Below, in pieces: positions 6,966 to 58,088 of a stretch of 64,000 nt of DNA. Position 1 is the stretch's first letter. The number at the start of each line of letters is the position of its first letter. Below the pieces are notes generated by a model that was not told the origin of the DNA, did not search any database, and saw only the letters and a program-made list of their open reading frames with translations. Source of the DNA: an uncultured Candidatus Saccharibacteria bacterium (GTDB taxonomy: Bacteria; Patescibacteriota; Minisyncoccia; Phycocordibacterales; UBA9973); the NCBI GenBank assembly GCA_964496425.1, contig CAZBZO010000002.1, positions 66,450 to 130,449 on the forward strand, in the 5' to 3' direction. Made by a program: the position numbers and the translations under genes.

Positions 6966-6991
6966 CCCAGCATCCAGTTATTTTCATTTTC

Positions 6992-24722: not shown

Positions 24723-24881
24723 ATGTCAAAAAGATTCAAAATTAATCTTATAGTACTTCTCGTTGCTATAGTAATCTTAGTAATAGCGTTTAAACCGACC
24801 GGATTGAGTTGGAGAGATTATCTCCATATTCCTCAATGTCTTTTAGGTTGCGTGTATACTAATAACTCTCGCGTAATTTAA
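24723..24881 (+). CDS. small single-pass membrane Cys peptide (52 aa, below track cutoff)
   Basis: Manually translated as MSKRFKINLIVLLVAIVILVIAFKP...PQCLLGCVYTNNSRVI. TAATG junction with the next gene. Confidence 0.3.
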   Translation: MSKRFKINLIVLLVAIVILVIAFKPTGLSWRDYLHIPQCLLGCVYTNNSRVI

Positions 24882-27618: not shown

Positions 27619-27828
27619 ATGAAAATACTTCTTACATTTATTATTATTGGCGGAGCAGTTGCACTGTTGTATTATTTTTTTTATACCGACCATAAGCCAA
27701 TTGATTTGCAGATACAAGAGCCAATAACCGTGAAGTGCGAGAAGGCAATGCAGACCATGCGATTTGATAGTCCAGAATCGAGCAATCAGTATTATATCGA
27801 TTGTTTGGCAGGGAAATTTGAAAACTAA
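27619..27828 (+). CDS. small single-pass membrane protein with Cys pair, located between the two transketolase halves
   Basis: 69 aa, TM, then VKCEKA...YIDCLAG. AT-rich. 1-nt spacing on both sides. Confidence 0.35.
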   Translation: MKILLTFIIIGGAVALLYYFFYTDHKPIDLQIQEPITVKCEKAMQTMRFDSPESSNQYYIDCLAGKFEN

Positions 27829-40118: not shown

Positions 40119-40149
40119 TCAATTTATTATAAGTATTATTAATTATTAA

Positions 40150-40410
<261 letters not shown>

Positions 40411-40476
40411 TAAGCCAAAAGCGAGTAGGGAATTGGGAAAGCATCCCTCTCTTCCCTGATCGCTATTTATTCTTAT

Positions 40477-40974: not shown

Positions 40975-40975
40975 T

Positions 40976-41218
40976 ATGTCAAAAGGATTTAAAATTATTG
41001 GAATAATTTTAGGACTTATTATTTTAATGTTGTTGCCAATTTTCCCTGTTAAAGTAAGTTCATCCATTGAACATCCTTGCGCAAAAGAAGAGACAAATAG
41101 TGCATCATTTTTACCATCTATGCCTACGTGTTATGACTCTGAAACCCTTTTTGTAAGCCCTTTAATCCATATTATTAAACCCGGGTACCAAAAGTACTAC
41201 TTCGATTTCAGTAAATAA
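40976..41218 (+). CDS. small single-pass membrane Cys protein inserted between atpF and atpH
   Basis: 80 aa, TM, then EHPCAKEE...MPTCYDSE. AT-rich. 1-4 nt spacing to neighbours. Confidence 0.35.
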   Translation: MSKGFKIIGIILGLIILMLLPIFPVKVSSSIEHPCAKEETNSASFLPSMPTCYDSETLFVSPLIHIIKPGYQKYYFDFSK

Positions 41219-41222
41219 AAAC

Positions 41223-41636
41223 ATGTCTAAACGAATTAAAACAACTGAAATCGCTCGAGCTTTGTTTGAAGAAGCTAAAGGTAAAGATCATACAGCAGTA
41301 GATCTGCTTACGACAAACACAGTTAAGCTTTTGGCTAAAGGTGAGCTTGCGAAAGATGGCGAAGCCGTACTTCAAGAACTCGAACGACTGGAAAACGATG
41401 AAGCCAAGATCGTCCAAGCTGAAGTGGAAAGCAAAGGTTCACTCGGAGAACATGAATCAAAAGAGATAGAAGATTTTATCCACCACAAGTTTCCACATCA
41501 CCATGTCAGTCTGAGTCATACCGTAAACCCAAATATTATCGGCGGAGTGAAGATCAAAATTGGCGACGAAGTCTGGGATCTTACCCTCAACCGTCAACTT
41601 TCAAATTTAAAAACCCATTTAGTCACCGAAGTCTAA
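41223..41636 (+). CDS. atpH: F0F1 ATP synthase subunit delta (short form)
   Basis: Operon position, 137 aa, C-terminal IIGGVKIKIGDEVWD matches delta/OSCP. Confidence 0.7.
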   Translation: MSKRIKTTEIARALFEEAKGKDHTAVDLLTTNTVKLLAKGELAKDGEAVLQELERLENDEAKIVQAEVESKGSLGEHESKEIEDFIHHKFPHHHVSLSHTVNPNIIGGVKIKIGDEVWDLTLNRQLSNLKTHLVTEV

Positions 41637-41666
41637 TTTAATTATTCATAATTCACCAAAAGTCAC

Positions 41667-43172
41667 ATGTCCAATCAAAACTACGTTGTCGAAAGTCTCA
41701 AAAAGAAAATAGCTGATTTCTCCACCAGTCTGAAAGGGGAGAAGGTCGGCCGCGTCGTCGAAGTCTTCGACGGTATTGCCCGCGTCTCCGGTCTCTCTGA
41801 TGTTAAAGCATCCGAAATGGTGAACTTCGCATCAGGCGCCGTGGGTGTGGCACTCAACCTCGAAGAAGATTCCGTGGGTGTGATTGTGCTTGGTGACTTT
41901 TCCAAGATCAAAGAAGGTGAAGAAGTGAAGTCCACAGGCAAGATTCTTGAAATCCCTGTCGGTGATGCGCAGATTGGACGAGTGCTCAACGTGCTCGGTG
42001 AGCCGATCGACGGACGTGGTGCAGTCAAAGCCGACAAACAGTATCCGATAGAGCGTGTGGCCTCTGGTGTTATTACTCGCCAGTCAGTCACTCAGCCTGT
42101 GCAGACTGGTATCAAGGCTATTGATGCACTCATCCCGATCGGCCGTGGTCAACGCGAGCTTTTGATCGGAGATCGTCAGACAGGAAAGACTGCTATCGCT
42201 ATCGACACTATTCTCAACCAAAAAGGTCAGAACCTTATCTGTGTCTATGTATCGATTGGCCAGAAGGACTCTAAGCTCCGCAAAATAGAAGCTCGTCTTC
42301 GCGACGCGGGAGCGATGGAATACACCATCATCGTCTCAGCTGGTGCCTCAGAGCCGGCAGCACTTTCATATCTCGCACCATACGCGGGTGTTTCGATCGC
42401 AGAATACTTCATGGACAAAGGCCAAGATGTGCTGATCATTTACGATGATCTTTCGAAGCACGCTGTGGCCTACCGCGAAATCTCGCTCCTGCTTCGCCGC
42501 CCGCCAGGTCGTGAAGCTTTTCCAGGAGACGTCTTCTACCTCCACTCACGTTTACTTGAGCGCGCATGTCGTCTCAACAAAGACTATGGCGGCGGCTCGA
42601 TCACGGCGCTTCCGATCATTGAGACTCAAGCCGGTGACATTACGGCTTACATTCCGACCAACGTCATTTCTATTACTGACGGACAAATATTTTTGGAAAC
42701 TGATCTTTTCTACAAAGGCGTGCGTCCTGCGGTCAACGTCGGAAACTCCGTTTCTCGTGTGGGTTCAAGTGCGCAGATCAAAGCCATGAAAAAAGTGGCA
42801 GGAACTTTGAAGCTCGACCTCGCACAGTTTCGTGAACTCGAAGCTTTCTCACAATTTGGCTCTGATCTTGATGAAGCTACACGGAAGACTCTCGATCGTG
42901 GCCGCCGCGCTGTAGAGCTTTTGAAACAACTTCAATACTCACCAGTCGTCGTCGAAAAACAAGTGGTGATCATGTATGCGCTTACCCGCGGGTATATCGA
43001 TGACGTGGCAGTCGATCGCTTGAAAGAATTCGAATCCGGCCTCGTCGACTACGTAAGCTCTCATGCCAAAAACTTTATGACCGAAATCCGCGAAAAAGGT
43101 ATGTGGAGCGATGCCGAAGAGGAGAATTTGAAGAAAGCGATAGGGGAGTATAAAGGGACATTCAATAAATAA
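41667..43172 (+). CDS. atpA: F0F1 ATP synthase subunit alpha
   Basis: GDRQTGKT Walker A and the alpha-subunit signature regions. Confidence 0.97.
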
Positions 43173-43176
43173 TTTT

Positions 43177-43572
43177 ATGGTGCCATTTTTTGAAAGCTTC
43201 CTTCATAAGCTTGGTATTAAAATCGAAGCAAATAAAGGAGATACTTTTAAAAATATTGATAACAAAAAAGGAGTATTCATTGTTGGGGATAATAATAAAG
43301 TTTCTGTAAACATGAAAAAAGATGAATTAAAAGAAAAACTCGAGCAAATACTTAACCTGGCAGATCCGCGATATTTTGAATTTTTGAGAAAAAATAATCA
43401 AGTATCAATCTTGTTAACTAATGATGAACTCTCAACTTTAAAGGAGATAGAGTACTCTCTTCTTAGTAATAAAATAGTGAGACTCGAAAGTAATGGTAAT
43501 ATGATGCAAAACAGACCAGACGGTAAAATGAGAACCGGTTGGGTTATTTATAAGTTACCAAGCTTTGATTAA
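43177..43572 (+). CDS. hypothetical soluble protein inserted between atpA and atpG
   Basis: 131 aa, about 28% GC. 4-nt gaps on both sides. Confidence 0.45.
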   Translation: MVPFFESFLHKLGIKIEANKGDTFKNIDNKKGVFIVGDNNKVSVNMKKDELKEKLEQILNLADPRYFEFLRKNNQVSILLTNDELSTLKEIEYSLLSNKIVRLESNGNMMQNRPDGKMRTGWVIYKLPSFD

Positions 43573-43576
43573 CTAA

Positions 43577-44488
43577 ATGGCATCAACGAAAGAAATAAAA
43601 CGTCGAATAAAATCGATTAAAAATACCAAGAAGATCACCAAGGCCATGGAGCTGGTGGCGGCTTCGAAGATGCGTAAGGCTGTGGGCAGTACGCTTGCTT
43701 CGCGCGCCTATGCAGGATATTCATGGGAAATACTTCAGTCACTTTCGCAAGCAATAGTAGACAGCGTCCATCCACTTTTCCAGACTCGTGAATCAAAGCG
43801 TGAGCTCATCATCCTCATCACTTCCAACCGTGGCCTCTGCGGCGCCTACAATGCGCAAATCATCCGCAAAGTGGTTGCTCGACTCCGAGATGCAGGAAAT
43901 AAAGACGAGCAGATTGACTTCATCACCATTGGCAAAAAAGGCGACGCAGCACTGCGACGTCTCGGCGCTACTGTCATCGCTTCTTTTACAGAGCTTGACG
44001 GTGTTTCACTTCGCGCTATTACGCCAGTCGTAGAGCTTGCTATGAATGAATTTGAAAAAGGCACCTACGGACGTGTGTCGGTGGCCTACACCGACTACAA
44101 GTCAGCGATTTCTCAAATCCCGCAAATCCGTCCGCTCTTGCCGATCTCCAAAGCTGACCTTCAAGCTGTTATCGAATCTGCGGCTGATACATCATCAAAA
44201 AACACTTCTCTTACCCCGAATGTACAGCCTACCAACTACCTTTTTGAGCCTTCGTACTCGGTGCTCATCAATTCTCTGGTTGAAAAACTCGCCCGTATGC
44301 AGGTCTACCAAATGATGTTAGAATCAGTCGCAAGCGAAGAATCGTCCCGTATGGTGGCTATGAAAAATGCTTCTGACGCAGCAGGGGAAATGATTGACGA
44401 TTTGACCTTGATATTCAACAAAGCCCGCCAGGCAAGTATTACCAAAGAAATATCAGAAATAAGCGCCGGTATGGCGAGTGTGAGTTAA
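43577..44488 (+). CDS. atpG: F0F1 ATP synthase subunit gamma
   Basis: MASTKEIKRRIKSIKNTKKITKAMELVAASKMRKA gamma N-terminus. Confidence 0.9.
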   Translation: MASTKEIKRRIKSIKNTKKITKAMELVAASKMRKAVGSTLASRAYAGYSWEILQSLSQAIVDSVHPLFQTRESKRELIILITSNRGLCGAYNAQIIRKVVARLRDAGNKDEQIDFITIGKKGDAALRRLGATVIASFTELDGVSLRAITPVVELAMNEFEKGTYGRVSVAYTDYKSAISQIPQIRPLLPISKADLQAVIESAADTSSKNTSLTPNVQPTNYLFEPSYSVLINSLVEKLARMQVYQMMLESVASEESSRMVAMKNASDAAGEMIDDLTLIFNKARQASITKEISEISAGMASVS

Positions 44489-44490
44489 TT

Positions 44491-46550
<2,060 letters not shown>

Positions 46551-46562
46551 TATTTTTACACG

Positions 46563-47006
46563 ATGTCATCTAATGAATTTGGTGAAATAACAAATCCAGG
46601 GGGAGAGGGTCACAAGAAAACACCTGAACAGGAGCTCTATCTTCTTTGCCAAAGTGGTTTAACTACTGGGAATGTTTTACCACCTGGGTTTGAATTGGAT
46701 GAAGGTGCTACGCTCTACTATAAATCTCACCATATTGATGAGATGAAATCACTTTTAGATGAGATAAGGCAATTTTCTTCACAAAATAAAATTGAGAAAA
46801 TTTTAAATCCTGTTAATAATGCAGAAGATAGTGTTCAAAATATCATTGCACAAATTCAAAGGAACATAGATTTTTCAGAAAGAGTAAATAGCGAGATTAA
46901 AATAAACCCTCCCAGGGTAGAAAATAAACTTACTGTCGAAGAACGAGAAAAAAGAAGGCAAGCAACGATAAATAAATTGAGAAAAAACAATGATAAAAAC
47001 TCTTAA
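46563..47006 (+). CDS. hypothetical soluble protein inserted between atpD and atpC (overlaps atpC start by 17 nt)
   Basis: 147 aa, AT-rich, with a C-terminal KR-rich coiled segment. Confidence 0.45.
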   Translation: MSSNEFGEITNPGGEGHKKTPEQELYLLCQSGLTTGNVLPPGFELDEGATLYYKSHHIDEMKSLLDEIRQFSSQNKIEKILNPVNNAEDSVQNIIAQIQRNIDFSERVNSEIKINPPRVENKLTVEEREKRRQATINKLRKNNDKNS

Positions 47007-47448
47007 ACTTAAAATTGTCACTCCAGAACGTACAATTCTCGAAGAAGATGTCGAGCAGGTGACCTTACCGACCTCGGAAGGGGAAATTACGGTACTACCT
47101 GGTCATGTGCCTCTCATTTCTACACTTCGCTCAGGCGAGATAGTCGCCAAGAAAGATGGTGAGTATATTCCAATGGCTGTTGTCGGAGGGTTTATAGAAG
47201 TCAGACCCACCTCCGCACAAGGCTCTGGCGTGGCAACGGAAGTTGCCGTGCTTGCAGATTATGCCGAATCTATCTCTGCTATTACTGAAGACGAGATCGT
47301 AAAAGCCAAAGCGCGTTCAGTAGAGCTCGCCAAGCTCGCTGAAAACAAAGAGCATGTCGACTTCGAACACTTTGCGACTGAACTTGAACGCTCACTTACC
47401 CGTGTGAAAATCGCCGATAAGTGGCGTACAAAAAAGTATCGTAAGTAA
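46990..47448 (+). CDS. atpC: F0F1 ATP synthase subunit epsilon
   Basis: N-terminal beta-sandwich region (LKIVTPERTILEEDVEQVTLPTSEGEITVLPGH) with a helical C-terminus. Confidence 0.85.
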   Translation: MIKTLKLKIVTPERTILEEDVEQVTLPTSEGEITVLPGHVPLISTLRSGEIVAKKDGEYIPMAVVGGFIEVRPTSAQGSGVATEVAVLADYAESISAITEDEIVKAKARSVELAKLAENKEHVDFEHFATELERSLTRVKIADKWRTKKYRK

Positions 47449-47477
47449 ACCGCACTCTGGAAAGAAGACGAACATTA

Positions 47478-47506
47478 TTGACATTGAAGTTAATTCATGC
47501 TATTAT
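47478..47506 (+). promoter_or_regulatory. sigma70-like promoter TTGACA-17-TATTAT
   Basis: Consensus -35 and near-consensus -10 with 17-nt spacer, 8 nt upstream of the 47514 ATG. Confidence 0.5.
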
Positions 47507-47513
47507 CTCGCGC

Positions 47514-49364
47514 ATGAAAAACACATTAATAGGGAGCCTTCTTGTAACCGCAGTTCTTATCAGCCCTCTCTCAGTACTTGCAGAAAATCACACACTCACT
47601 ATTAACGTCGATACGAGTACCTCAGTAGCCGCGCCAAAGTACTTTTCTGGCTTCAATACCAACGAAGTCAAGACCACATGGACTTATAATGACCCGCTTT
47701 TTCAAAGTGCAGTAAAAAAGCTCTATCCCAAGACTCTTCGCTGGCCAGCAGGAGGAGCTGCCAGTAAGTTTGATTGGCGTACGGGAGATATCACGAGCGC
47801 ATTTATCGAGCGTTCTGTTGCACTCGGACTGAGTCTTCCAACAAAGCTTGAAGATGATTATGAAACGCAAGCAGAGAGCCGCAGTAAACTCGGCGTAGAT
47901 TTAATTGAATTTTCTGACCTCGTTTTAAAACCAAATAAAGCTTCAGCTACTATCATGATCAACAGTCTGACTGACTTTCCAGAACTTCCGGGAAGCGACT
48001 ATGCAGCATCTGCTCGCGACCTGGCAGCATACGCACGAGATAATGGTGTACCTGTTGAATATTGGGAGCTCATGAATGAGCCCTATCTAAAAAACAAGCT
48101 TCTCTTTTGGGATTTGATCGGCATTGAGCTTGGTATGAGCAAGGATGGAGGCGAGAGCCTTGGGCATTACAACGGCCGTGTCTATATGGCATGGACAAAG
48201 ATTTTTTCTGATGCTATTAAGTCACAAATACCTGCAGCAAAAACTGTTGTCATGTTTGCACCTGGTAAGCTTGCTGATCAGACATATAAAGGAGAGACGG
48301 ATCTCGACTACCAAACACATTTTAATGATGCCATATGGGAATATGGACAAACAAACGGAACTTTCTGGAACGCTATGTCATTTCACTGGTACCCGTGCTA
48401 CCCAATCTATGAAGGCGAAGAGACTATGGAGGGAGCAGAAAAATGCTTGAATGGAAACATTAAATATCTTGAAAGCACGATTGGAGACTATTATATTCCT
48501 AAAAATACTGAGTATTTAGGTAATGCGAATATGCCGATAATTATCACCGAGACCAACGTTTCACCAGATAGTCCAATCATGGGTACACTTTTCAATACCG
48601 TATATATTTCTGAAATGCTTGGACGTCTCAGTGCATACCCCCAAGTAAAAAGTATTAACATCCAAAGTATGGCTGCAAATGGCGCCATACATTGGGGAGC
48701 TTTTCGCTTATTGAATCAGGGATATTGGGCCGATGTTTCAGAAGATACCTACGCGTCAACGCCAGAAAATATTTTACCAAAGGCCCAACCGTTTTTTGAT
48801 GCAGGCCTCGTATCCTTCACCTCACAATATACTGACGCAGGACGAGAAACTGGTGTTATTGACCTCAAGAACGTACCGACGCTTCCTGATTTTGCTACCA
48901 ATCCTGCTTTCTCAAATTATAAAATTATCAATACAATTAACGGCGAAGCTTTAAAATTCGTCAATGAAATATTTTTTGATGCAAAATCTTCTTTCCCGAT
49001 ATCAGTGACGAGCGGCACACAAGCGACAGTCATGTACGGTGAACAGCCGCAATTGCCCGTAGCGACTGACATCGGTGGAAGTATTACCGTAGGTGATGCA
49101 CTCTATATGCGTGGCTTTCTATCGCGCACTAATGTTCGAAGAATTCTTATTACCAACAAGTCCGGAGATACTCACACCGTAAGCATCAATTGGGCAGGTA
49201 TACCACCAACCACAAAGGTAACGCATATATCTATCTCAAATCCTGATAAACTTTTGAAAAATACAGATGCCGCACCAACTTCAGTGACATCAACAACTAC
49301 AAGTATCCTTACACCGGTTACTATCGGACCATATTCGGTAAACGTCATTAACTTGAAAAAATAG
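47514..49364 (+). CDS. secreted clan GH-A glycoside hydrolase (GH5-like TIM barrel)
   Basis: Signal peptide. WELMNEPY (acid/base Glu in NEP) and IIITETNV (nucleophile Glu) motifs. C-terminal beta-sandwich region of about 200 aa. Confidence 0.6.
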   Translation: MKNTLIGSLLVTAVLISPLSVLAENHTLTINVDTSTSVAAPKYFSGFNTNEVKTTWTYNDPLFQSAVKKLYPKTLRWPAGGAASKFDWRTGDITSAFIERSVALGLSLPTKLEDDYETQAESRSKLGVDLIEFSDLVLKPNKASATIMINSLTDFPELPGSDYAASARDLAAYARDNGVPVEYWELMNEPYLKNKLLFWDLIGIELGMSKDGGESLGHYNGRVYMAWTKIFSDAIKSQIPAAKTVVMFAPGKLADQTYKGETDLDYQTHFNDAIWEYGQTNGTFWNAMSFHWYPCYPIYEGEETMEGAEKCLNGNIKYLESTIGDYYIPKNTEYLGNANMPIIITETNVSPDSPIMGTLFNTVYISEMLGRLSAYPQVKSINIQSMAANGAIHWGAFRLLNQGYWADVSEDTYASTPENILPKAQPFFDAGLVSFTSQYTDAGRETGVIDLKNVPTLPDFATNPAFSNYKIINTINGEALKFVNEIFFDAKSSFPISVTSGTQATVMYGEQPQLPVATDIGGSITVGDALYMRGFLSRTNVRRILITNKSGDTHTVSINWAGIPPTTKVTHISISNPDKLLKNTDAAPTSVTSTTTSILTPVTIGPYSVNVINLKK

Positions 49365-49384
49365 GTTCAAATAAGTACTCAAAA

Positions 49385-49414
49385 ATGCCACCTGACAAAT
49401 AGGTGGCATTTTTG
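49385..49414 (+). terminator. intrinsic terminator
   Basis: atgccacctgacaaataggtggcat hairpin followed by ttttg. Confidence 0.6.
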
Positions 49415-49429
49415 TTATACTAGCCCGGC

Positions 49430-50320
49430 ATGTATACCATAATTCTGTTTTATAAATACGTAAAAATCAAGGCTACTCATGAGGAGATGGTTAAACAGCG
49501 GGCTGTGTGCGAAGCTCTAGGTCTTTTTGGGCGGATGATTGTGGCCGAAGAGGGGATCAATGGCACGTTTGAAGGCACGACTGAAAATATTGAAAAGTAT
49601 ATTACCTGGATGAATGGGCGGAAAGGATTTATGGACATCCATTGGAAAAAAAGTGCTGGTACTGGAGAGGCATTCCCAAGATTATCTATCAAAGTACGAA
49701 ATGAAATAGTTTCGCTCCATTTGGGCAAAGAAAAAGATATTGATCCTCGGAAGTTTACTGGAGCGCATTTGAAACCCGAAAAACTCAAAGAGTGGTATGA
49801 CCAAGGCAAAGAGTTCTACATCGTCGATATGCGAAATAGTTACGAACTCAAAGTAGGTAAATTTGAAAATACTGTTTTCCCCGGTATGGAGAATTTTCGG
49901 GATTTGAAAGAAAAAGTGAACGAAATAAAAAATCTCAAAGATAAAACAGTGCTCACCGTCTGTACAGGAGGCGTGCGGTGCGAAAAAGCCTCTGGATATC
50001 TGAAACGAGAAGGGTTTACTGATGTCCATCAGCTAGATGGAGGTATTGTGTCTTACATGGAAAAATATCCTGGCCAAGATTTTAAAGGATCTCTTTATGT
50101 CTTCGACAATCGTATTACTATGCATTTTGATAAGCCGGAAACTCATGAAGTGATTGGTGTATGTGGACGATGTGGAGAAAAATCCGAGCATTACATAAAC
50201 TGTGGCAACCAACTCTGCCATGAGCATATTATTTGTTGCGAGCAGTGCGTAGAAGCACATGCTGGAATCGGCTATTGCTCAGACAGTTGCAAAGAAGTGA
50301 GTTCTCCACAGATTGCATAG
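49430..50320 (+). CDS. trhO: rhodanese-domain tRNA U34 hydroxylase TrhO (YceA/UPF0176) with Cys-rich C-terminal extension
   Basis: ILFYKY...CEALGLFGRMIVAEEGINGT N-terminal signature, rhodanese active-site Cys (CTGGVRCEKA). The C-terminal CGRCGE...CGNQLC...CCEQC..C..C cluster is an extension. Confidence 0.75.
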   Translation: MYTIILFYKYVKIKATHEEMVKQRAVCEALGLFGRMIVAEEGINGTFEGTTENIEKYITWMNGRKGFMDIHWKKSAGTGEAFPRLSIKVRNEIVSLHLGKEKDIDPRKFTGAHLKPEKLKEWYDQGKEFYIVDMRNSYELKVGKFENTVFPGMENFRDLKEKVNEIKNLKDKTVLTVCTGGVRCEKASGYLKREGFTDVHQLDGGIVSYMEKYPGQDFKGSLYVFDNRITMHFDKPETHEVIGVCGRCGEKSEHYINCGNQLCHEHIICCEQCVEAHAGIGYCSDSCKEVSSPQIA

Positions 50321-50416
50321 TAAAGGCTTTCTCGGCATAGTATACTTTACAAATAAGGTCGAAGAACTTTATGGCGACAGTCGCTATAAAACAATTTTTT
50401 AAAACAATATATTACT

Positions 50417-50818
50417 ATGGCAAAAAAGTTAGCAATGATTTTTGGAGTAGTGTTCGTACTTGTTGGCTTGCTTGGATTTATCAATAATCCGATAGTCGGT
50501 GCGGAGGGTATTTTCAATACAAATATGCTCCACAATATCGCGCATTTGCTTATTGGTATTGTCCTTATCCTTGTAGCCAAAAAAGAAAGCACGGCAGTAC
50601 TGTGGATGAAAATCTTCGGTGCAGTCTATCTACTTTTGGCGGTACTCGGCTTTATGGTGGTTTCAAAAGGTGGCGACATGATTCTCAATCTTGTTGCAGT
50701 CAACGCCGCAGACAACTGGCTCCATGTCGTCCTCGGTGTAGTACTCCTCATCGTCGGCTTTATGGCTGGCAAAAGTACAACGCAGGGACCAGCAATGAAC
50801 TCTTCTTCAAATATGTAA
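50417..50818 (+). CDS. hypothetical 4-TM membrane protein (DUF4383-like)
   Basis: 133 aa with four hydrophobic helices and a conserved LHN..HL pattern. Confidence 0.5.
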   Translation: MAKKLAMIFGVVFVLVGLLGFINNPIVGAEGIFNTNMLHNIAHLLIGIVLILVAKKESTAVLWMKIFGAVYLLLAVLGFMVVSKGGDMILNLVAVNAADNWLHVVLGVVLLIVGFMAGKSTTQGPAMNSSSNM

Positions 50819-50845
50819 CATGTAGAGTTATTTCTCTCGTAAAAA

Positions 50846-50870
50846 CCCCGACTACCTATCCGGGGTTTTT
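50846..50870. terminator. bidirectional intrinsic terminator between convergent genes
   Basis: aaaaaccccg...cggggttttt has an A tract and a T tract flanking a GC stem. Confidence 0.55.
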
Positions 50871-50934
50871 ATATTAAAAAAGCACTTACAATATGTAATA
50901 CGTAAGCGCTTGTAGGGATAATATAAATTTTCTT

Positions 50935-51588
50935 TTATAAATAAAATATATTTGATTCCCAAATATACAGAGAATGATTTTGTATCCAATAATTTTTTAA
51001 GTCTTTTGGCATATTTTTTTCAAACTCAGGATGGGTGATAAATATATATTTATTAAACTCACCAAATGAACTTGAATAAAGGACTTGCCGAAGTAGCCCA
51101 TTATACTTCTCCAGTGTTTTTTTAGCGTTGAATTTATCATCCGGATCGCTAAAAAATGAATTGCTTAAAATCTCTTTTACTACTAATGGTTGGAGAAGTA
51201 TTAGAGAAAATTGCCGCGCACTAGTTTCTGCACGCGGTAAATCTGAGGTCCATATAACAGCTGGACCTAAATTTTTCTCTTTAAATCTCTCCGCAGCCAC
51301 TTTTACTTCTTTTTTCCCAAACTCCGTGAGTTGGAAACAATCATCAAGATATTCGGGTTGGACAACAAAAGGATAGATCGTAAGCATGGTAGTAGGATTT
51401 CGTTCATATGCATTGTACAACTTTCCTAGAAAAAGTACAGTGGCAAGGATATTAAAATTTTGGTAGTATTCTGATACAACTAAATACGCATCAAGAGTGG
51501 TGGGGAAAGCCTTGGCTTGTAGATCCATCCAGCAACTTGTCCAAAAGATAAAGTGCTCCATCCAAGCCCCTTGCAGGGAAAGATACAT
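50935..51588 (-). CDS. hypothetical protein (lone minus-strand AT-rich gene)
   Basis: 217 aa with no TM and no recognised motif. Start uncertain; internal ATGs at MEHFIFW and MDLQAKA. Confidence 0.45.
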   Translation of the reverse strand: MYLSLQGAWMEHFIFWTSCWMDLQAKAFPTTLDAYLVVSEYYQNFNILATVLFLGKLYNAYERNPTTMLTIYPFVVQPEYLDDCFQLTEFGKKEVKVAAERFKEKNLGPAVIWTSDLPRAETSARQFSLILLQPLVVKEILSNSFFSDPDDKFNAKKTLEKYNGLLRQVLYSSSFGEFNKYIFITHPEFEKNMPKDLKNYWIQNHSLYIWESNIFYL

Positions 51589-51618
51589 CTTACTAAATCT
51601 CTCCTTGCAGAGATTTTT

Positions 51619-52677
51619 ATGTTTTTAAATAATAAAACCTATACAACAGAGTCAGTTACCGGCGGACATCCAGATAAAGTTTGTGATCAGATTTCAGATG
51701 CGATCTTGGATGCCTGTGTAAGCCAAGATCCATTATCACGAGTAGCTGTAGAATGCCTCGGTAGTCATGGGCTGCTTGTCATTGGCGGAGAAATTACCAC
51801 TCGGGCGAAAGTGGATTATAAAGCTATCGCCGCTACTTTATACAAAGATATCGGCTACGACGATGAATTAGAAATTGTCTCGCATCTTTCAGAACAATCG
51901 CCTGACATCGCTCAAGGTGTTGATCGAGAAGGAGCAGGAGATCAAGGCATGATGTATGGATATGCTACCAACGAAAATGATAGTTTTTTACCCGAAGGTT
52001 ATGTCCTTACTCAAAATCTCGCACGACAACTAGAAATGGTGAGGAAAAATAAAACAGTAGCGTGGCTTAAGCCGGATGGTAAAACTCAAGTGACAATGGA
52101 AAATGGCAAGGTAGCGACGATTTTGGTCAGTGCTCAGCACGAGAAAGGAATAGATGCGGCAACGGTGCGCCATGCCCTCATCGAACATGTCATCAAGCCG
52201 ATGGTTAACATTGACCTTGCTGATATAGAAATACTCACAAACCCAACAGGGACTTTCGTTAGTGGTGGTTTTGAAGCCGACTGTGGCGTGACTGGACGAA
52301 AAATTATGGTGGATAGCTATGGTGGTCTTGCTCCTCACGGCGGCGGGTGCTTTTCAGGTAAAGATGCTACAAAAGTTGATCGTTCTGGGGCATATATGGC
52401 TCGTTTCGCAGCAAAAAACCTTGTCGCCAAAGGTTTTGGTAATCAAATCATTGTTTCAGTCGCATATGCAATCGGTAAAGAAGAACCACTTATGTTGCAA
52501 GCTATCGATGAAAAAGGTACCGATCTATCTGAAGTTTTAAAAAAGAATTTTGATTTCAGACCTCGCGCAATTATCGAGCGTCTAGCGCTTCGTAATCCGA
52601 TTTATCAAAAAACTGCTACGTATGGCCATTTTGGTATCAAAAACGTACCGTGGGAAGCTTTGGTTGACTTGGCATGA
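51619..52677 (+). CDS. metK: S-adenosylmethionine synthetase
   Basis: TTESVTGGHPDKVCDQISDAILDA N-terminal signature and GGGCFSGKD. Start re-set to ATG (MFLNNK). Confidence 0.95.
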   Translation: MFLNNKTYTTESVTGGHPDKVCDQISDAILDACVSQDPLSRVAVECLGSHGLLVIGGEITTRAKVDYKAIAATLYKDIGYDDELEIVSHLSEQSPDIAQGVDREGAGDQGMMYGYATNENDSFLPEGYVLTQNLARQLEMVRKNKTVAWLKPDGKTQVTMENGKVATILVSAQHEKGIDAATVRHALIEHVIKPMVNIDLADIEILTNPTGTFVSGGFEADCGVTGRKIMVDSYGGLAPHGGGCFSGKDATKVDRSGAYMARFAAKNLVAKGFGNQIIVSVAYAIGKEEPLMLQAIDEKGTDLSEVLKKNFDFRPRAIIERLALRNPIYQKTATYGHFGIKNVPWEALVDLA

Positions 52678-52694
52678 TGCTATAATTATCCGTA

Positions 52695-53390
52695 ATGGAA
52701 ATAAAAAAACGAAAAGTTGCTATTTTCGATATTGACGGTACAATTTTCCGTTCTAGTTTACTTATTGCACTTATCGAAGGCTTGATCGAGGCTGGGATGT
52801 TTTCTCCAAAGATCAGAAAGGAATACGAAAAAGAGTTGAATCGTTGGCAAGACAGGAAAGGGGAGTATGAGGACTATATTTTAAAAGTCGTCGAGGCTTT
52901 TATGGTGCACGTAAAAGGGCTTCCGTTTGAATCATTCGAACAGGTCGCAAAAAAAGTTGTGCAAGAAAACCAAGACCGAATATATCGCTATAGCCGTGAT
53001 TTGATCCGTGATCTGAAAAAGAAAAAATACTTTTTACTTGCAATATCTCAGTCTCCGTGGGGCATTGCCAATATATTTTCCAAAAATTTAGGGTTTGATA
53101 AAGTCTATGGACGTTTTTATGAGCTTGGACCATCAGATCAATTTACCGGAAAAATTATTGATGAGCATTTGATCGCCAACAAAGGCACGATCGTAAAGCG
53201 CGCCATAGAAAAAGAAAATCTCACACTTCGGGATTCAATTGGGGTCGGAGATACAGAAGGGGATATTGCTATGCTCGAACTTGTCGAAAATCCCATTTGT
53301 TTTAATCCAAATATGAAACTCTACCGCACTGCGAAACGCCAAGGCTGGAAAGTCGTTGTCGAGCGCAAAGACGTTATCTATACTTTGTAA
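52695..53390 (+). CDS. HAD-IB family hydrolase (phosphoserine phosphatase-like)
   Basis: Motif I DIDGTI, motif III/IV GVGDTEGD. Confidence 0.7.
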   Translation: MEIKKRKVAIFDIDGTIFRSSLLIALIEGLIEAGMFSPKIRKEYEKELNRWQDRKGEYEDYILKVVEAFMVHVKGLPFESFEQVAKKVVQENQDRIYRYSRDLIRDLKKKKYFLLAISQSPWGIANIFSKNLGFDKVYGRFYELGPSDQFTGKIIDEHLIANKGTIVKRAIEKENLTLRDSIGVGDTEGDIAMLELVENPICFNPNMKLYRTAKRQGWKVVVERKDVIYTL

Positions 53391-53421
53391 GGCACTTTTT
53401 CTTCGTGGTATACTCAACTGC

Positions 53422-54168
53422 ATGAATGAATCCACCGGTACGCTTTATGTTGTAGCTACACCTATCGGTAATCTTGAAGACATAACACTTCGGGCGCTTA
53501 CAGTACTTGGAAGTGTGGATCTAGTGCTTTCAGAAGATACTCGAGTAACAGCCAAACTCTTTGCAGCGCATTCGATACAAAAAAAACTCATACGCTACGA
53601 CTCGCACAGCAAGAGCGATTTTTCAGACAAAATGGCAGTATTGCTCACTGAGGGAAAAAATATTGCTCTTGTGTCTGATGCGGGTACGCCGGGCATATCT
53701 GACCCAGGAATGCTTTTGGTACACACCATTCGAGGGAAATATCCGACAATCCCAATTGTCGCTATTCCGGGACCGTCCGCCGTTACAGCAGCCCTTTCCG
53801 CAAGCGGACTTCCTGCATCGGATTTTCTTTTTTTAGGCTTTTTGCCTCATAAAAAGGGGAGACAAACGTTGCTTCAAGAAACCAAAGATTCAAAACGCAC
53901 CGTGGTGCTGTATGAATCACCACATCGGATCTTAAAACTGCTTGATGAACTAGAAAAAATAATCGAAGGCACACGAACTGTTATTATCGGTAGAGAGCTA
54001 ACAAAACACTTCGAAGAATTCATCTCGGGTACCGCATCAGAACTTAAAATATTTTTTGCAAAAAATCCTGAAAAAGTGCGAGGGGAATTTGTCGTGATGA
54101 TAGAAGCTCTTGGAAAATTACCACACAGTACAAGTCCCAAAAAATCGAAATACCCACCAAAATATTAA
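53422..54168 (+). CDS. rsmI: 16S rRNA (cytidine1402-2'-O)-methyltransferase
   Basis: GTLYVVATPIGNLEDITLRAL...SEDTR tetrapyrrole-methylase-fold N-terminus. Start re-set to ATG. Confidence 0.85.
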   Translation: MNESTGTLYVVATPIGNLEDITLRALTVLGSVDLVLSEDTRVTAKLFAAHSIQKKLIRYDSHSKSDFSDKMAVLLTEGKNIALVSDAGTPGISDPGMLLVHTIRGKYPTIPIVAIPGPSAVTAALSASGLPASDFLFLGFLPHKKGRQTLLQETKDSKRTVVLYESPHRILKLLDELEKIIEGTRTVIIGRELTKHFEEFISGTASELKIFFAKNPEKVRGEFVVMIEALGKLPHSTSPKKSKYPPKY

Positions 54169-54206
54169 ATCTTTCATTTTATCTCTTTGTATCGTATACT
54201 TATTCC

Positions 54207-54416
54207 ATGATCGGACAGGCCAAAATACTGCTTGTATTGGGAGCGCTCGCTTCAGTCGTATCTTTCCTTGGGCTTCCAGAGACTATCAAAAAGATTGCAT
54301 TACTGGTCTTAGGTCTCGCTGTAGCAGTCTTGGCGCGCCTTATTCTTCGCAGATTGCACATGCTTGAAGATAAGAAGGATATTAACAATAGTACATACAC
54401 TGAGCATCGGATATAA
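54207..54416 (+). CDS. small 2-TM membrane protein
   Basis: 69 aa with two hydrophobic helices. Confidence 0.35.
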   Translation: MIGQAKILLVLGALASVVSFLGLPETIKKIALLVLGLAVAVLARLILRRLHMLEDKKDINNSTYTEHRI

Positions 54417-54455
54417 ACCTAACATATAGCAATTTATTTGCTGTACAAAATATAT

Positions 54456-55664
54456 ATGGAACAACGAAAATTTACATCGCGATTTAGATTGGTTGCAGGT
54501 ATTTTACTTGCACTTGTTTTTGTTGGAGGTATATATGTTGGTGTGCACGGGCGAGAAGCTTTAGCAAAAATTACTTCGCTTTCTGCTGTTGAATCTGAAA
54601 CCGCAGATTTCACTTCTTTTTGGAAAGTTTGGAATATTATAAACGAAAAATATCCCAATGCTTCAGGCGTGAGTTCACAAGAGCGAGTCTATGGTGCTAT
54701 TAAAGGCCTCGTCGAATCGCTCGAAGATCCATATTCTGAATTTTTTACGCCAGAAGAAACGAAAGATTTCCAGGATCTTATCAACGGCTCATTTGGGGGT
54801 GTTGGAATTGAAATCGGCGTGAAAGAAAAAACTCTCACTGCAATGTCTGTGCTGCCAAATACTCCAGCGGAAAAAGCCGGAATACTTGCAGGCGATAAGA
54901 TTTTAAAGATTGATGCTACTGCGACAAGTGATCTGTCTATAAATGGAGCAGTTAACCTTATTAAGGGTGAAGAAGGGACAACGGTAACGCTTACTATTTA
55001 TCGCGAAGGAGAAAGTGTGACTCGAGAGATTGCTCTGGTGAGGGCTAAAATCATCGTGCCCACACTTTCCACCGAACTTCGTTCTGATGGCATATTTGTG
55101 ATTGAATTTTACAATTTCGACTCGCACGCTATTTCCGAATTCAAAACTGCAGTTTTGGCATTTGCAAAAACTGGGTCAAAAAAACTTATTATTGATTTGC
55201 GAGGAAATCCGGGAGGTTTTTTGGATGCAGCAATCGATACTGCAAGCTGGTTTCTGCCAGCAGGAGAGGTGATTGTTCGTGAAAATTTTGGCCCAGACGA
55301 ACCTGAAACTATATATCGCAGCAAAGGATACGCCACACTACAAGGTAAAAATATAAAAATTGAAATACTTGTTGATGGAGGTTCGGCTTCAGCGTCAGAA
55401 ATTTTTGCAGGAGCACTCTCTGAGCATGGTGTCGCTGATTTAGTAGGAGAGCAGACATACGGAAAAGGTTCAGTTCAGGAACTTATCGGCATTACTGGAG
55501 AAACTTCTCTTAAGCTGACTATTGCCAAATGGCTTACACCAAAAGGTATTTCTATCTCAGAACAAGGCTTGACCCCAACCTACGTAGTACCTTTTACGGA
55601 TAATGATGCAACTCTCGCGATTGACCCTCAGCTTAACAAAGCTATTGAACTCTTAAATCAATGA
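54456..55664 (+). CDS. ctp: carboxyl-terminal processing protease (S41A)
   Basis: N-terminal TM, PDZ (GILAGDKILKID), DLRGNPGG and catalytic GGSASASEIFAG. Confidence 0.85.
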   Translation: MEQRKFTSRFRLVAGILLALVFVGGIYVGVHGREALAKITSLSAVESETADFTSFWKVWNIINEKYPNASGVSSQERVYGAIKGLVESLEDPYSEFFTPEETKDFQDLINGSFGGVGIEIGVKEKTLTAMSVLPNTPAEKAGILAGDKILKIDATATSDLSINGAVNLIKGEEGTTVTLTIYREGESVTREIALVRAKIIVPTLSTELRSDGIFVIEFYNFDSHAISEFKTAVLAFAKTGSKKLIIDLRGNPGGFLDAAIDTASWFLPAGEVIVRENFGPDEPETIYRSKGYATLQGKNIKIEILVDGGSASASEIFAGALSEHGVADLVGEQTYGKGSVQELIGITGETSLKLTIAKWLTPKGISISEQGLTPTYVVPFTDNDATLAIDPQLNKAIELLNQ

Positions 55665-56101
55665 AAGTAATTTTACGAAAAGATATTCCAAAACTTGGAA
55701 AAAAGAATGAGATAAAAGAAGTGCCGGAAGGGTATGGGCGGAATTTCCTTTTACCAAACGGCTTAGCGGATATCGCAACACCTCAGGCTATTGCTGAAAT
55801 CGACAGAGTAAAAAATATCAAAAAAGTTGAAAAACAAGTAGAAAGAAACCTTCTCCTAAAAAATCTCCATGACTTGGAAAACATTGTTGCGACGATCCAT
55901 GTTGAAGCAAATGAAAAAGGTAATTTATTTAAAAGTATTCACAAGGAAGACATTGCAAACGAACTTAAGAAAACACATCGGATCGAAGTTGATCCAGATA
56001 CTATTTTACTCCCTACGCCACTCAAGTCTCTCGGAGAGTATAAAATCGAAGTCCTCGTTATGGACAAAAAAGGAACTTTTACTCTGATAGTTAAAAAATA
56101 A
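55661..56101 (+). CDS. rplI: 50S ribosomal protein L9
   Basis: MKVILRKDIPKLGKKNEIKEVPEGYGRNFLLP N-terminus. Confidence 0.9.
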   Translation: MKVILRKDIPKLGKKNEIKEVPEGYGRNFLLPNGLADIATPQAIAEIDRVKNIKKVEKQVERNLLLKNLHDLENIVATIHVEANEKGNLFKSIHKEDIANELKKTHRIEVDPDTILLPTPLKSLGEYKIEVLVMDKKGTFTLIVKK

Positions 56102-56103
56102 AA

Positions 56104-56126
56104 CCCCGTAACGGGGGTTTATTTTT
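56104..56126. terminator. bidirectional intrinsic terminator (rplI / rpmA convergent)
   Basis: aaaccccgtaacgggggtttatttttt. Confidence 0.6.
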
Positions 56127-56137
56127 TAGATATTGTC

Positions 56138-56410
56138 TTAAATAACGTGTACGGATTTTTTTACGCTCTTACTGCCGTCAAAGTGAGTTTTTCTTTTGTT
56201 GTCAAAACGGACCGTTCCTTCTTTGAGTGCATATAAGGTATGGTCTTTGCCCATCCCGACATTTTTGCCTGCCACAATAACTGTGCCACGTTGTCGGATA
56301 ATAATAGAACCAACTCCTGCTTTTTCTCCAGCGTAAAGTTTGGTACCAAGGTACTTTGGGTTTGAATCTCTTAGGTTTTTGGCGGATCCGCCTGCTTTTC
56401 TATGTGCCAT
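56138..56410 (-). CDS. rpmA: 50S ribosomal protein L27
   Basis: [16 protein letters not shown]...[10 protein letters not shown]...GKDHTLYA. Start re-set to ATG (track start is extended upstream). Confidence 0.9.
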
Positions 56411-56462
56411 AGTGCTATATTTTTTAGACTTTACGTAATATAATACAACCTGTAATTGCGCT

Positions 56463-56849
56463 ATGACTATACAGGAAATAGGCCAAAAAATCAAGCATAG
56501 AGCTAAAAGTAGGCAAGGAAACGACTTTTTGCTAGTGGCGACCCTTATATGTGTGGCTCTGACGGCATTTCTTCTTGGTCGTATTTCGCTTAGAAGCGAA
56601 GGGAAGCCAGAAGTGGTGATACAAGGTGCGCCACTTGATTTTCTTTCGGCACAACAAGCAAAAGTACCGTTTACGGAGGGAACAGGGTCAGCGTCTAGTC
56701 CTCTTGGAGCTATTTTTGCCTCAAAGAATGGTACTAAATATTATTTTAATGGCTGCTCCTCTCAAGTGAAAGAAGAGAATAAAATATGGTTTACTTCCGA
56801 AGACGAAGCACTCGCTGCAGGATTTACCAAATCAAGTACGTGTAAATAA
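56463..56849 (+). CDS. hypothetical signal-anchored protein with C-terminal Cys pair
   Basis: 128 aa, TM near the N-terminus, then ...GCSSQV...SSTCK. Confidence 0.4.
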
Positions 56850-56855
56850 TTTCTT

Positions 56856-57725
56856 ATGAAAATACTAAAACTAATCGCTCCCATACTGATACTTACTTGT
56901 GTTGGAATTTTTTTCATTTCCGATGATACTCAAAATATAGTACTTGAAAATAAAGTTGTTAAAAATATTTTAAGTAAAGATTTCGGATTTAATTTCCATA
57001 GTAAATTTGAAGAGATTTTAAGTACACTTCCCGGACCACTAAAAAAGATAGTCGGGGATGGGGAAGTGCCTGCTTCACTTTCTGCATCTCTTATTATCAA
57101 TGCTACGAACGCGGCGCGCATGCAAAATGGAAACTTGCCAGCTCTGGCTACCAATCCTGAGCTTTCCGCGTCGAGTGAAAGCAAAGTAGATGATATGTTC
57201 ATTGGCCAATACTTTGAGCATGTTTCTCCATCAGGCATTTCTGTTGCCGAACTTACGACAACCGCTGGATATGAATACATTGTTGTGGGAGAAAATCTTG
57301 CCTTGGGCAATTTTCTAACAGAACAGGCAATCGTGGACGCCTGGATGGCGAGCCCTGGCCATCGCGCAAATATTTTAAATGATCGATATACAGAAATTGG
57401 CGTTTCGGTGAAAAAAGGCATCTATGAAGGCCAAGAAGTTTTCATCGCAGTTCAACATTTTGGCCTCCCACTTTCTACGTGTCCGGAAATAAATACTGGG
57501 CTCAAAAACACCATTACCGAGCTCGAGAAGGAAGTAGCTGACTTAGAGGTTGAGCTTGCGAGCCAGAAAGCCCAGATTGATGCCGAAGAGGGAAATGCAA
57601 AAAAAGAAATAGAAGCGTATAACGAAACTGTTGATATTTATAATAAAACGATTGCTGTTTTGAAAATACAAATCGCAGCATACAATTCGTCAGTCACTGC
57701 CTTCAATGCTTGTCTAGCGGGGTAG
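56856..57725 (+). CDS. CAP (SCP/PR-1-like, YkwD-type) domain protein with C-terminal coiled coil
   Basis: N-terminal TM. CAP-domain motifs GHRANILN, YTEIGV and central EH. C-terminal heptad-rich segment of about 80 aa. Confidence 0.7.
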   Translation: MKILKLIAPILILTCVGIFFISDDTQNIVLENKVVKNILSKDFGFNFHSKFEEILSTLPGPLKKIVGDGEVPASLSASLIINATNAARMQNGNLPALATNPELSASSESKVDDMFIGQYFEHVSPSGISVAELTTTAGYEYIVVGENLALGNFLTEQAIVDAWMASPGHRANILNDRYTEIGVSVKKGIYEGQEVFIAVQHFGLPLSTCPEINTGLKNTITELEKEVADLEVELASQKAQIDAEEGNAKKEIEAYNETVDIYNKTIAVLKIQIAAYNSSVTAFNACLAG

Positions 57726-57830
57726 GGCGCCTTTACTCTAGGGTGAATGTCGCACAATATATCTTTTGCGACATACAACAGCGAAAATATAAAGGGTAAA
57801 ATAACCCTGGGTAAAAGCTCTCCAACTTCT

Positions 57831-58088
57831 CTACTCAGTAGCTGCAGTCTCAGAGGGCTCGTTTTCAGTATTTCCTACTGAAGATATTTTCTCCTTAATA
57901 CTTTCATAAAAATGAATGGCTGCATTTTTAGCAACTTCACTGGCATAGGCTAGATTTGACTGACTCGCTGGTTTTTCAACTACATCTTTAATCTCTATAT
58001 TGAAATACCCCAATACAAGCAGTACTGCTACGATAATGAGTACGATACTTAAGATTCCTCCTTTTTCTTTTGCTTGTGTGCCTTTCAT
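57831..58088 (-). CDS. small single-pass membrane protein
   Basis: 85 aa with a TM helix, immediately downstream of the M23 gene (1-nt gap). Confidence 0.35.
   Translation of the reverse strand: MKGTQAKEKGGILSIVLIIVAVLLVLGYFNIEIKDVVEKPASQSNLAYASEVAKNAAIHFYESIKEKISSVGNTENEPSETAATE

Follow-up and report, generated by a model that had tools for sequence, protein, structure and literature searches.

Small genes at operon junctions of a candidate phyla radiation bacterium probably form a heterogeneous, lineage-restricted set that includes one small membrane protein family

A 64,000-nucleotide (nt) stretch of contig CAZBZO010000002.1 (GenBank assembly GCA_964496425.1, positions 66,450 to 130,449), referred to here as the window, carries small open reading frames (ORFs) between its housekeeping genes. 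Five of them, 27619, 40976, 54207, 56463, and 57831 (named for their lower coordinates), had been grouped in an initial sequence-only reading with a tandem array at 23.7 to 25.4 kb as one family-like set of tiny membrane proteins. We found that the five are real genes but that the array has just one relative among them, 40976; the other four show no similarity to the array or to one another. The small ORFs at these junctions are of three kinds: (a) one paralogous family, (b) the singletons 27619, 57831, and three inserts in the ATP synthase operon, and (c) the syntenic genes 54207 and 56463. Taken together, they are probably heterogeneous, lineage-restricted genes that are embedded in the operons of a streamlined Paceibacterota genome of the candidate phyla radiation (CPR).

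The window has a GC content of ~43%, and its genes are very densely packed. Since its AtpA is 75 to 79% identical to the AtpA of metagenome-assembled genomes labelled Parcubacteria, Paceibacterota, or Minisyncoccia, the window derives from a CPR bacterium. The exact small proteins are also encoded by an NCBI contig of 205 kb and by several metagenome contigs that are near-clonal, and the population contigs L081 to L088 and L171 to L177 (L numbers designate the sequences compared with the window) are 99.7 to 100% identical to it.

The flagged ORFs are real genes

All five flagged ORFs were located in the window sequence where the sequence-only reading had placed them (Table 1). Each is predicted by public gene callers, and the exact products are present in a public protein collection. 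When each junction was simulated with a first-order Markov model and scored for ORFs as long as the one observed, the resulting P values were ≤0.0002 for 27619, 40976, and 56463, 0.0014 for 57831, and 0.02 for 54207; in five junctions (P ≤ 0.0002), the simulations almost never yielded ORFs that occupied 97 to 99% of the gap.

27619 is under strong purifying selection. Relative to its orthologue in L170, with which it shares 93% amino acid (aa) identity (the L170 DNA is 81% identical to the window), it has accumulated 22.5 synonymous and 6.5 nonsynonymous differences, giving a nonsynonymous-to-synonymous rate ratio (dN/dS) of 0.038; the transketolase halves on either side have ratios of 0.028 and 0.048. 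A similar value was obtained for array member 2 and its orthologue on the sister contig L178 (dN/dS of 0.043, versus 0.045 for GAPDH). Most of the small ORFs also exhibit the coding-type pattern of GC1 exceeding GC2 and GC3. In a codon-model test, the ORF's own frame scored best in 14 of 14 cases, a weak form of support that is partly circular because the alternative frames contain stop codons. The small ORFs had no match in Pfam, NCBIfam, PHROGs, or PADLOC that reached a curated cut-off: PHROGs and PADLOC returned zero phage or defense matches, and Pfam and NCBIfam returned sub-threshold noise only, except for the sunset-like match described below.

An N-terminal hydrophobic helix, called here by Kyte-Doolittle hydropathy, is borne out for all five ORFs, whereas the other properties ascribed to them as a group apply to some members only. 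The paired cysteines attributed to several short ectodomains are present in 27619, 40976, and 56463 but not in 54207 and 57831, which have no cysteine, and 27619, 40976, and 57831 are AT-rich, while the GC contents of 54207 and 56463 are close to that of the window (Table 1). Single-digit spacing, said to be universal, was observed on both sides of only 27619 (1 nt on either side) and 40976 (1 nt upstream and 4 nt downstream). 57831 has 0 nt between it and the upstream M23 peptidase stop codon but 105 nt between it and a convergent downstream gene, 56463 lies 6 nt from the downstream gene and diverges from rpmA over ~52 nt, and 54207 is separated by 38 nt upstream and ~21 to 39 nt downstream.

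40976 and members of the tandem array form one small family

An all-against-all blastp comparison combined with family hidden Markov models (HMMs) did not recover a single family containing all five ORFs. 40976 matched residues 51 to 74 of the 23727 ORF (E = 4e-4) and, more weakly, the 24349 and 24519 ORFs. In leave-out searches of 20,727 six-frame ORFs from the window and related loci, an HMM built from three array members ranked 40976 first (E = 1.5e-5), followed by an ORF at the GAPDH|RpiB junction of L153, which comes from another metagenome (E = 5e-4). When the HMM was built from foreign sequences only (L153 and L161), the top non-training ORF was array member 3 (24349; E = 0.006). 27619, 54207, 56463, and 57831 did not score against the family profile. 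The family is tiny, amounting to about 10 clusters among the 1.84 billion cluster representatives that we searched exhaustively with the profile (11 hits at E < 1e-3, of which 10 were plausible and 1 was a spurious repeat protein).

The family consensus begins with a basic N terminus, M-(S)K-x-F-K-I (often MSKxFKI), and continues through one transmembrane (TM) helix, a juxtamembrane (F/L)(L/V)P(I/L)(I/L)PVK segment, a short, disulfide-type cysteine loop (often C-x4-C, e.g., CIKAPC or CIYPPC), and a VSL(Y/K)-type tail. This group, defined here and named for its MSKxFKI, LPxIPVK, and Cys-loop motifs, is a true paralogous family that has not been described previously. Its copies in the window are 40976, between atpF and atpH, and three or four ORFs in tandem between GAPDH and RpiB. 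Elsewhere, members were found at atpF|atpH in L179/L180 and in L181, which together with the window makes three lineages for this junction; other lineages carry them at GAPDH|RpiB or RpiB|Rpe, those of L153 and of L161, L163, and L169 lying directly 3' of GAPDH and P0026 lying between RpiB and Rpe in L182. All members with recoverable context reside in Paceibacterota-like atp or pentose-phosphate gene clusters.

Not all of the array belongs to this family. The family HMM scored array member 1 at 49 bits, as a training sequence; in L178, an unrelated 68-aa ORF takes its place. L178 keeps array member 2, although the ORFs on both sides of it have been swapped for unrelated ones, and member 2 itself gave a nonsignificant match to the family HMM (E = 2.6). 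Array member 5 was the top non-training hit of an enlarged family HMM but at an E value of 0.17. A homologue of array member 6 was absent from the 183 sequences compared. Members 5 and 6 both begin with DNA similar to the start of 40976.

At the atpF|atpH junction, the relatives of 40976 are P0023 (186 aa), which is 58% identical to it across 64 aa and is present in L179 and L180, and the family member P0022 (69 aa) in L181. Between the window and L179, identity is 58% (local) for 40976, 47% for AtpF, and 31% for AtpH, and dN/dS, calculated at saturated dS, is ~0.19 for 40976, 0.20 for atpF, and 0.18 for atpG; in this comparison, 40976 is conserved at least as well as its neighbors. True atpF and atpI/Z genes are present separately from 40976, and 40976 had zero Pfam hits at E < 1 and so does not match PF00430, PF05405, or PF09527. 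When AtpH was used to search for a sister atp operon, only the self match was returned.

The first 21 nt of 40976 (40976 to 40996; ATGTCAAAAGGATTTAAAATT) are identical to those of P0022 in L181 (2168 to 2188), while synonymous sites elsewhere are saturated. This identical start may reflect a constraint on translation initiation or a recombination site. A separate resemblance between the 5' end of 40976 and the start of atpH (15 of 20 nt) was judged insufficient because Lys-rich, AT-rich starts are common.

54207 and 56463 are conserved in synteny, whereas 27619 and 57831 are singletons

54207 and 56463 are conserved syntenic genes with host-like GC content that are unrelated to the 40976 family. 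Positional orthologues of 54207 lie directly after rsmI in L001 (13947 to 14210) and L009 (17108 to 17356) and share with it the hairpin motif lGiW-A--PFLgFP; an HMM built from these two orthologues ranked 54207 first among 21,399 ORFs (E = 3.3e-5). Since 54207 has two helices, it would form a hairpin without an ectodomain.

56463, which carries a 22-residue basic N terminus ahead of its TM helix, has homologues in L001 (16336 to 16815; E = 3e-9) and L107 (12148 to 12588; E = 6e-12), each with a divergent rpmA on one side and a CAP-domain gene on the other. These proteins have in common the C-terminal motif KYY-x-x-C...N+(I/V)(Y/W)F...A..G(Y/F)...C. We considered whether 56463 is a sunset domain protein (NCBIfam NF051437), since both have a C-terminal module of ~40 aa with a cysteine near its start and end behind an N-terminal TM helix and the motif KYY-x-x-C...(I/V)(Y/W)F...A...G(Y/F)...C. 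However, the match reached 23.0 bits, below the 27-bit cut-off, it covered only half of the model (positions 23 to 41 of 42), and the L001 orthologue did not match the model at E < 0.1, so this assignment was rejected.

No homologue of 27619 was found in 80 related TktN loci. The genes that it separates encode the N- and C-terminal parts of a split transketolase (TktN, 26742 to 27617; TktC, 27830 to 28858), an arrangement that is kept in 69 of 69 loci in which both halves were seen. 57831 has GC1/2/3 values of 0.50/0.34/0.28 and is called in every population contig, while a relative was absent from the related loci compared. Its assignment as a type IV pilin or minor pilin was discarded: ComGG scored 17 bits against a cut-off of 40, and the G-F-T-L-x-E motif is absent.

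Occupancy and cargo of operon junctions vary among relatives

Junction conservation in related genomes was mixed: 54207 and 56463 are kept in synteny, whereas occupancy and cargo elsewhere are strongly variable. In the window, four of the seven internal junctions of the ATP synthase operon (39189 to 47448) are filled by low-GC ORFs of 80, 131, 230, and 147 aa, of which only the first, 40976, had been listed previously; the flanking atp genes have GC contents of 0.41 to 0.52. The gaps at atpF|atpH, atpA|atpG, atpG|atpD, and atpD|atpC measure 248, 404, 697, and 439 nt in the window, compared with medians of 9, 23, 54, and 88 nt in 34 related loci, in which the medians over all seven junctions range from 9 to 93 nt. 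Among these 34 loci, three or four filled junctions were observed only in L003, L013, and L016; L179, a partial contig, has two. Other than the 40976 orthologue in L179, no homologue of a window insert was found in the 34 loci, and the atpA|atpG insert (43177 to 43572) had zero family matches. In a single-sequence AF2 model of the 230-aa insert, the mean pLDDT was 41, and the TM helix alone was confident. The atpF|atpH gap is shorter than 150 nt in 23 of 27 related loci, and of the four filled loci, L179 and L181 carry the family and L003 and L013 carry unrelated ORFs.

The conserved GAPDH-RpiB-Rpe-TktN-TktC (pentose-phosphate) cluster exhibited a similar patchwork, with filled junctions in 33 of 46 loci for GAPDH|RpiB, 15 of 65 for RpiB|Rpe, 13 of 77 for Rpe|TktN, and 18 of 69 for TktN|TktC; the TktN|TktC gap has a median of 79 nt in related loci and reaches 3.5 kb. 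Relatives yielded 117 unique same-strand junction ORFs, of which 91% have a higher AT content than the sequences flanking them (by a mean of 7.7 points) and 34% have a TM helix.

The cargo labels that follow are readings of the sequences and not HMM results. At atp junctions, L001, L003, and L179 carry small multi-TM proteins, and L019 carries a NUDIX-like protein. The more distantly related L013 (7931 to 8281), L016 (12793 to 13089 and 14875 to 15303), and L018 (13981 to 14382) carry four-helix-bundle (23S rRNA intervening-sequence type), GIY-YIG, and GxxExxY proteins, and a nearly identical 142-aa GxxExxY-type ORF follows atpD in L013 (15229 to 15657) and L016. In L030, the atpG|atpD junction (5918 to 7481) holds a Bro-N-like gene and a RelE/XRE-like toxin-antitoxin pair. 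The rpiB|rpe junction of L159 holds an ORF with a type IV pilin-like N terminus (MKLKRGFTLLELLVVIAIIG...).

Table 1. Small ORFs of the tandem array, the ATP synthase operon, and the remaining flagged positions of the window
Feature	Positions	Strand	GC	Description
Array member 1	23727..24107	+		126 aa, with three TM helices; family match in the C-terminal half (from 23874)
Array member 2	24111..24347	+		78 aa, TM helix and four-Cys ectodomain; not detectably in the family
Array member 3	24349..24522	+		57 aa, family member, C-x4-C loop
Array member 4	24519..24716	+		65 aa, family member, C-x4-C loop; 4-nt overlap with member 3
Array member 5	24723..24881	+		52 aa, MSKRFKI N terminus, TM helix, C-x3-C; marginal family member
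Array member 6	24881..25384	+		167 aa, MSKSSKI N terminus, TM helix, four ectodomain Cys; outside the family by HMM
27619	27619..27828	+	0.36	69-aa bitopic protein, TM 3-21, C40/C62; exactly fills the gap between the transketolase halves; singleton
40976 (atpF|atpH insert)	40976..41218	+	0.32	80-aa bitopic protein, TM 7-25, C35/C52; between atpF and atpH
atpA|atpG insert	43177..43572	+	0.30	131-aa soluble ORFan; Markov P < 0.0002; GC1/2/3 = 0.40/0.23/0.27
atpG|atpD insert	44491..45183	+	0.34	230-aa ORFan, N-terminal TM helix, four Cys, acidic ectodomain
atpD|atpC insert	46563..47006	+	0.33	147-aa soluble ORFan; 17-nt overlap with atpC
54207	54207..54416	+	0.44	69 aa, helices 5-23 and 29-47, no Cys; after rsmI, before an S41 protease gene
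56463	56463..56849	+	0.42	128 aa, TM 23-41, C-terminal Cys...Cys (C98, C127) sunset-like module; between divergent rpmA and a CAP-domain gene
57831	57831..58088	-	0.37	85-aa bitopic protein, TM 11-29, no Cys; start codon abuts the M23 peptidase stop; singleton

Proposed mode of expression, display, and turnover

The earlier suggestion of an expanding surface microprotein repertoire survives in a weak sense. One family does have tandem and dispersed copies, and most junction ORFs in the window look as if they are anchored N-in/C-out with an even number of ectodomain cysteines (by Kyte-Doolittle hydropathy and the positive-inside rule); on the other hand, the five flagged ORFs are not one family, and 54207 and 56463 are not insertions.

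Given that most of the small ORFs have no evident signals of their own and lie 0 to 6 nt from a neighboring housekeeping gene or overlap it, they are probably co-transcribed with constitutively expressed housekeeping operons and would be translated via coupling or re-initiation. Their products would insert N-in/C-out and expose small, disulfide-stapled ectodomains on the cell surface. Novel TM and secreted proteins, together with an MdbA-like disulfide oxidoreductase, are overrepresented in CPR genomes (Meheust et al. 2019, PMC6744442), and 53% of novel Patescibacteria families in the FESNov catalogue are TM or signal-peptide proteins (PMC10849945); anchored proteins with an even number of ectodomain cysteines fit both the oxidoreductase and this TM and secreted excess. 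The set probably evolves as whole ORFs are gained, lost, or replaced at a small number of permissive junctions within operons, and this turnover would proceed without a dedicated cassette-mobility machine. The presumably younger occupants are AT-rich (GC of 0.30 to 0.38), and the conserved ones have host GC, a split compatible with either recent capture or de novo origin, with amelioration afterwards (see PMC7005711 and PMC12315717).

Several observations weigh against this account. Shine-Dalgarno-like motifs could not be seen upstream of any gene here, which leaves spacing as the basis for the proposed coupling, and the N-in/C-out topology is a prediction that rests on hydropathy and the positive-inside rule. 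Selection was measured on two or three of the ORFs, those with sister sequences. In three lineages, the family is found at one and the same junction, atpF|atpH, but it is absent from the apparently related L001, a recurrence that is hard to explain by random gain and loss and that could reflect functional linkage or targeted insertion. Finally, L179 (845 to 1405) and L181 (2168 to 2377) carry differing family members of 186 and 69 aa at this junction despite 93% DNA identity (94% aa identity) through atpF; their alignment ends ~20 nt inside the small ORF and restarts ~10 nt inside atpH, a break that looks like cassette replacement or very fast divergence.

A more far-reaching proposal, which we regard as a long shot, is that the 40976 family is a hypervariable surface-display module in which the ~21-nt start region and the TM helix are fixed at particular junctions of highly expressed operons and the ectodomain part is swapped by recombination between paralogues, with Paceibacterota junctions serving as a nursery in which ORFans arise or are captured and are tried out under ready-made expression. 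If true, an episymbiotic CPR bacterium would exchange surface-variation cassettes at atpF|atpH, GAPDH|RpiB, and RpiB|Rpe without a dedicated recombinase.

Alternative explanations for the filled junctions

De novo birth of the "TM-first" type, in which expanded T-rich spacers that were already transcribed near ribosomes gave rise to TM-prone peptides later fixed by selection, seems unlikely to us as an alternative to the turnover of heterogeneous real genes. It would accommodate the GC split, since the lineage-specific ORFs have intergenic-like GC content (0.30 to 0.38) and the conserved ones have that of the host, as well as the strong TM bias, the absence of homologues, and the tight fit between the stop and start codons of the neighbors. 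The yeast precedent (Vakirlis et al. 2020, PMC7005711) likewise involves AT- or T-rich sequences in formerly intergenic space that encode a hydrophobic helix and lack homologues, although it concerns yeast intergenic transcripts rather than a bacterial operon. However, the empty junctions of relatives are just 9 to 90 nt long, so the 200 to 700 nt of new DNA must have some source, and neither a noncoding precursor sequence nor a nongenic ancestor was found. Paired cysteines and dN/dS values of 0.04, which place two ORFs under the same constraint as core enzymes, point to mature proteins, and the three further atp inserts are not simple TM peptides, as two are soluble and one has an ectodomain of ~200 aa. 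The origin of bacterial ORFans in general is still open (PMC12315717).

We think it quite unlikely that the ORFs are mobile, promoterless cassettes that target the stop/start junctions of highly expressed operons through an integron-like or unknown site-specific mechanism. The differences in occupancy and cargo between related genomes, the presence of one family in two unrelated operons, the replacement breakpoints at the ORF 5' end and the atpH start in L179 and L181, and the identical first 21 nt of 40976 and P0022 despite saturated dS could all be read in this way. So could a 107-aa ORF that is inserted between atpH and atpA in L181 but absent from L179: it is flanked by an imperfect direct repeat of ~30 nt (2761 to 2790 and 3116 to 3147) consisting of the atpH 3' end, its stop codon, and spacer. 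This repeat was the sole convincing one among 25 inserts (99th percentile), and target-site duplication, an idea raised by it and by the similar sequences on both sides of 27619, failed as a general rule when the 36 nt before each of the 25 insert starts were compared with the 36 nt before the next gene start (11.5 for matched pairs and 11.7 for mismatched pairs; P = 0.68).

Additional evidence argues against mobility. A repeat search around the array, the atp inserts, and 27619 turned up no relevant direct or inverted repeats; attC-like inverted repeats and shared boundary motifs were absent from the three regions searched; and no integrase, transposase, or recombinase was detected in the ~40 window ORFs scanned with Pfam, a scan that was not exhaustive. 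The notion of a mobile cassette-like gene type put forward by the sequence-only reading thus lacks positive evidence, although the strong variation in junction occupancy and cargo between related genomes keeps part of it plausible. Cassette polymorphism points both ways: junction cargo varies and the family sits at three junction types, but an identical or near-identical cassette was not seen at two sites. 27619 and array member 2 are stably inherited under host-like constraint, and the cargo of relatives includes ordinary metabolic genes and toxin-antitoxin pairs, as generic permissive sites predict. Integron cassettes do resemble these ORFs in being promoterless, single, tightly packed in one orientation, variable in content, and expressed from an upstream promoter; however, there is no attI site or attC-like repeat here and no integrase among the ORFs scanned, and the ORFs are dispersed between essential genes instead of being gathered into a single array, with some of them inherited vertically under strong constraint. 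Within operons, terminator-like sites were no more common than in shuffled sequences, and promoter-like matches in the AT-rich inserts were set aside as having no evidential value.

A role for the 40976 lineage in the F-type ATP synthase, as a clade-specific small subunit or an assembly factor encoded among the stator genes, is very unlikely. Small accessory membrane proteins such as KdpF, CydX, and AtpI/AtpZ are encoded within membrane-complex operons, and 40976 resembles them as a tiny single-pass gene between the structural genes of a complex with coupling-type spacing. Its occurrence at atpF|atpH in three lineages and its conservation, which equals or exceeds that of the neighboring b and delta subunits, are in keeping with such a role. 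Nevertheless, it has no homology to these accessory proteins and no similarity to the ATP-synt_B or AtpI families, its paralogues adjoin GAPDH, RpiB, and Rpe in a sugar metabolism cluster, and 23 of 27 related atp loci lack it, with the family in only two of the four filled ones. Moreover, the ectodomain differs wholly between L179 and L181 despite their nearly identical atpF DNA.

The explanation that AT-rich spacers happen to be open and that gene callers over-predict, for which the short length and AT richness of the ORFs, their general lack of homologues, and family matches below curated cut-offs might speak, is extremely improbable, because AT-rich sequence is rich in stop codons, the Markov simulations almost never filled the junctions, both ORFs with close orthologues (27619 and array member 2) have dN/dS values of 0.04, and 40976, 54207, and 56463 have orthologues or positional homologues; these data already refute a chance origin of 27619, 40976, 54207, 56463, and array member 2.

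Significance

What emerges is one new small family together with several singletons, all of a type known to abound in CPR genomes, and their positional pattern is unusually clear. Like the small TM and secreted families for which CPR genomes show enrichment, these proteins are short, lineage restricted, mostly equipped with a single TM helix or signal sequence, unannotated, and presumed to reside at the surface. Unlike the catalogued families, which are widespread across the CPR, the 40976 family comprises only ~10 clusters at specific ATP synthase and pentose-phosphate junctions.

For annotation, small AT-rich ORFs between CPR housekeeping genes should count as real, given that the constraint on two of them matches that on transketolase and GAPDH. 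Reasoning by "guilt by association" would be misleading here, as a gene may sit in an atp or pentose-phosphate operon without taking part in that process. Within its ATP synthase operon, an extremely streamlined genome devotes ~1.8 kb to four lineage-specific ORFs, which suggests that small surface proteins are important for its lifestyle and that the landing or birth of genes is tolerated at operon junctions. The ~110 related loci, with identical flanking genes and differing cargo, provide a comparative system for the origin of ORFans by transfer, divergence, or de novo birth.

Additional ORFs in the window

The junction pattern extends beyond the flagged range, as a 115-aa soluble ORFan (12671 to 13018; GC of 0.29; no Pfam match) lies between holB (DNA polymerase III delta') and frr (ribosome recycling factor). 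Three larger ORFs likewise had no Pfam match: 18431 to 19717 (428 aa; E ≤ 0.001), 30341 to 31510 (389 aa; E ≤ 0.01), and 47478 to 49364 (628 aa; E ≤ 0.01), of which the 389-aa ORF has a low GC content (0.36). At the edge of the window, a 68-aa ORF (34 to 240) contains repeated D-x-N-x-D-x-x-V-x-x-x-D motifs that are dockerin/EF-hand-like, and it is probably the C terminus of a larger surface protein that is cut by the window edge.

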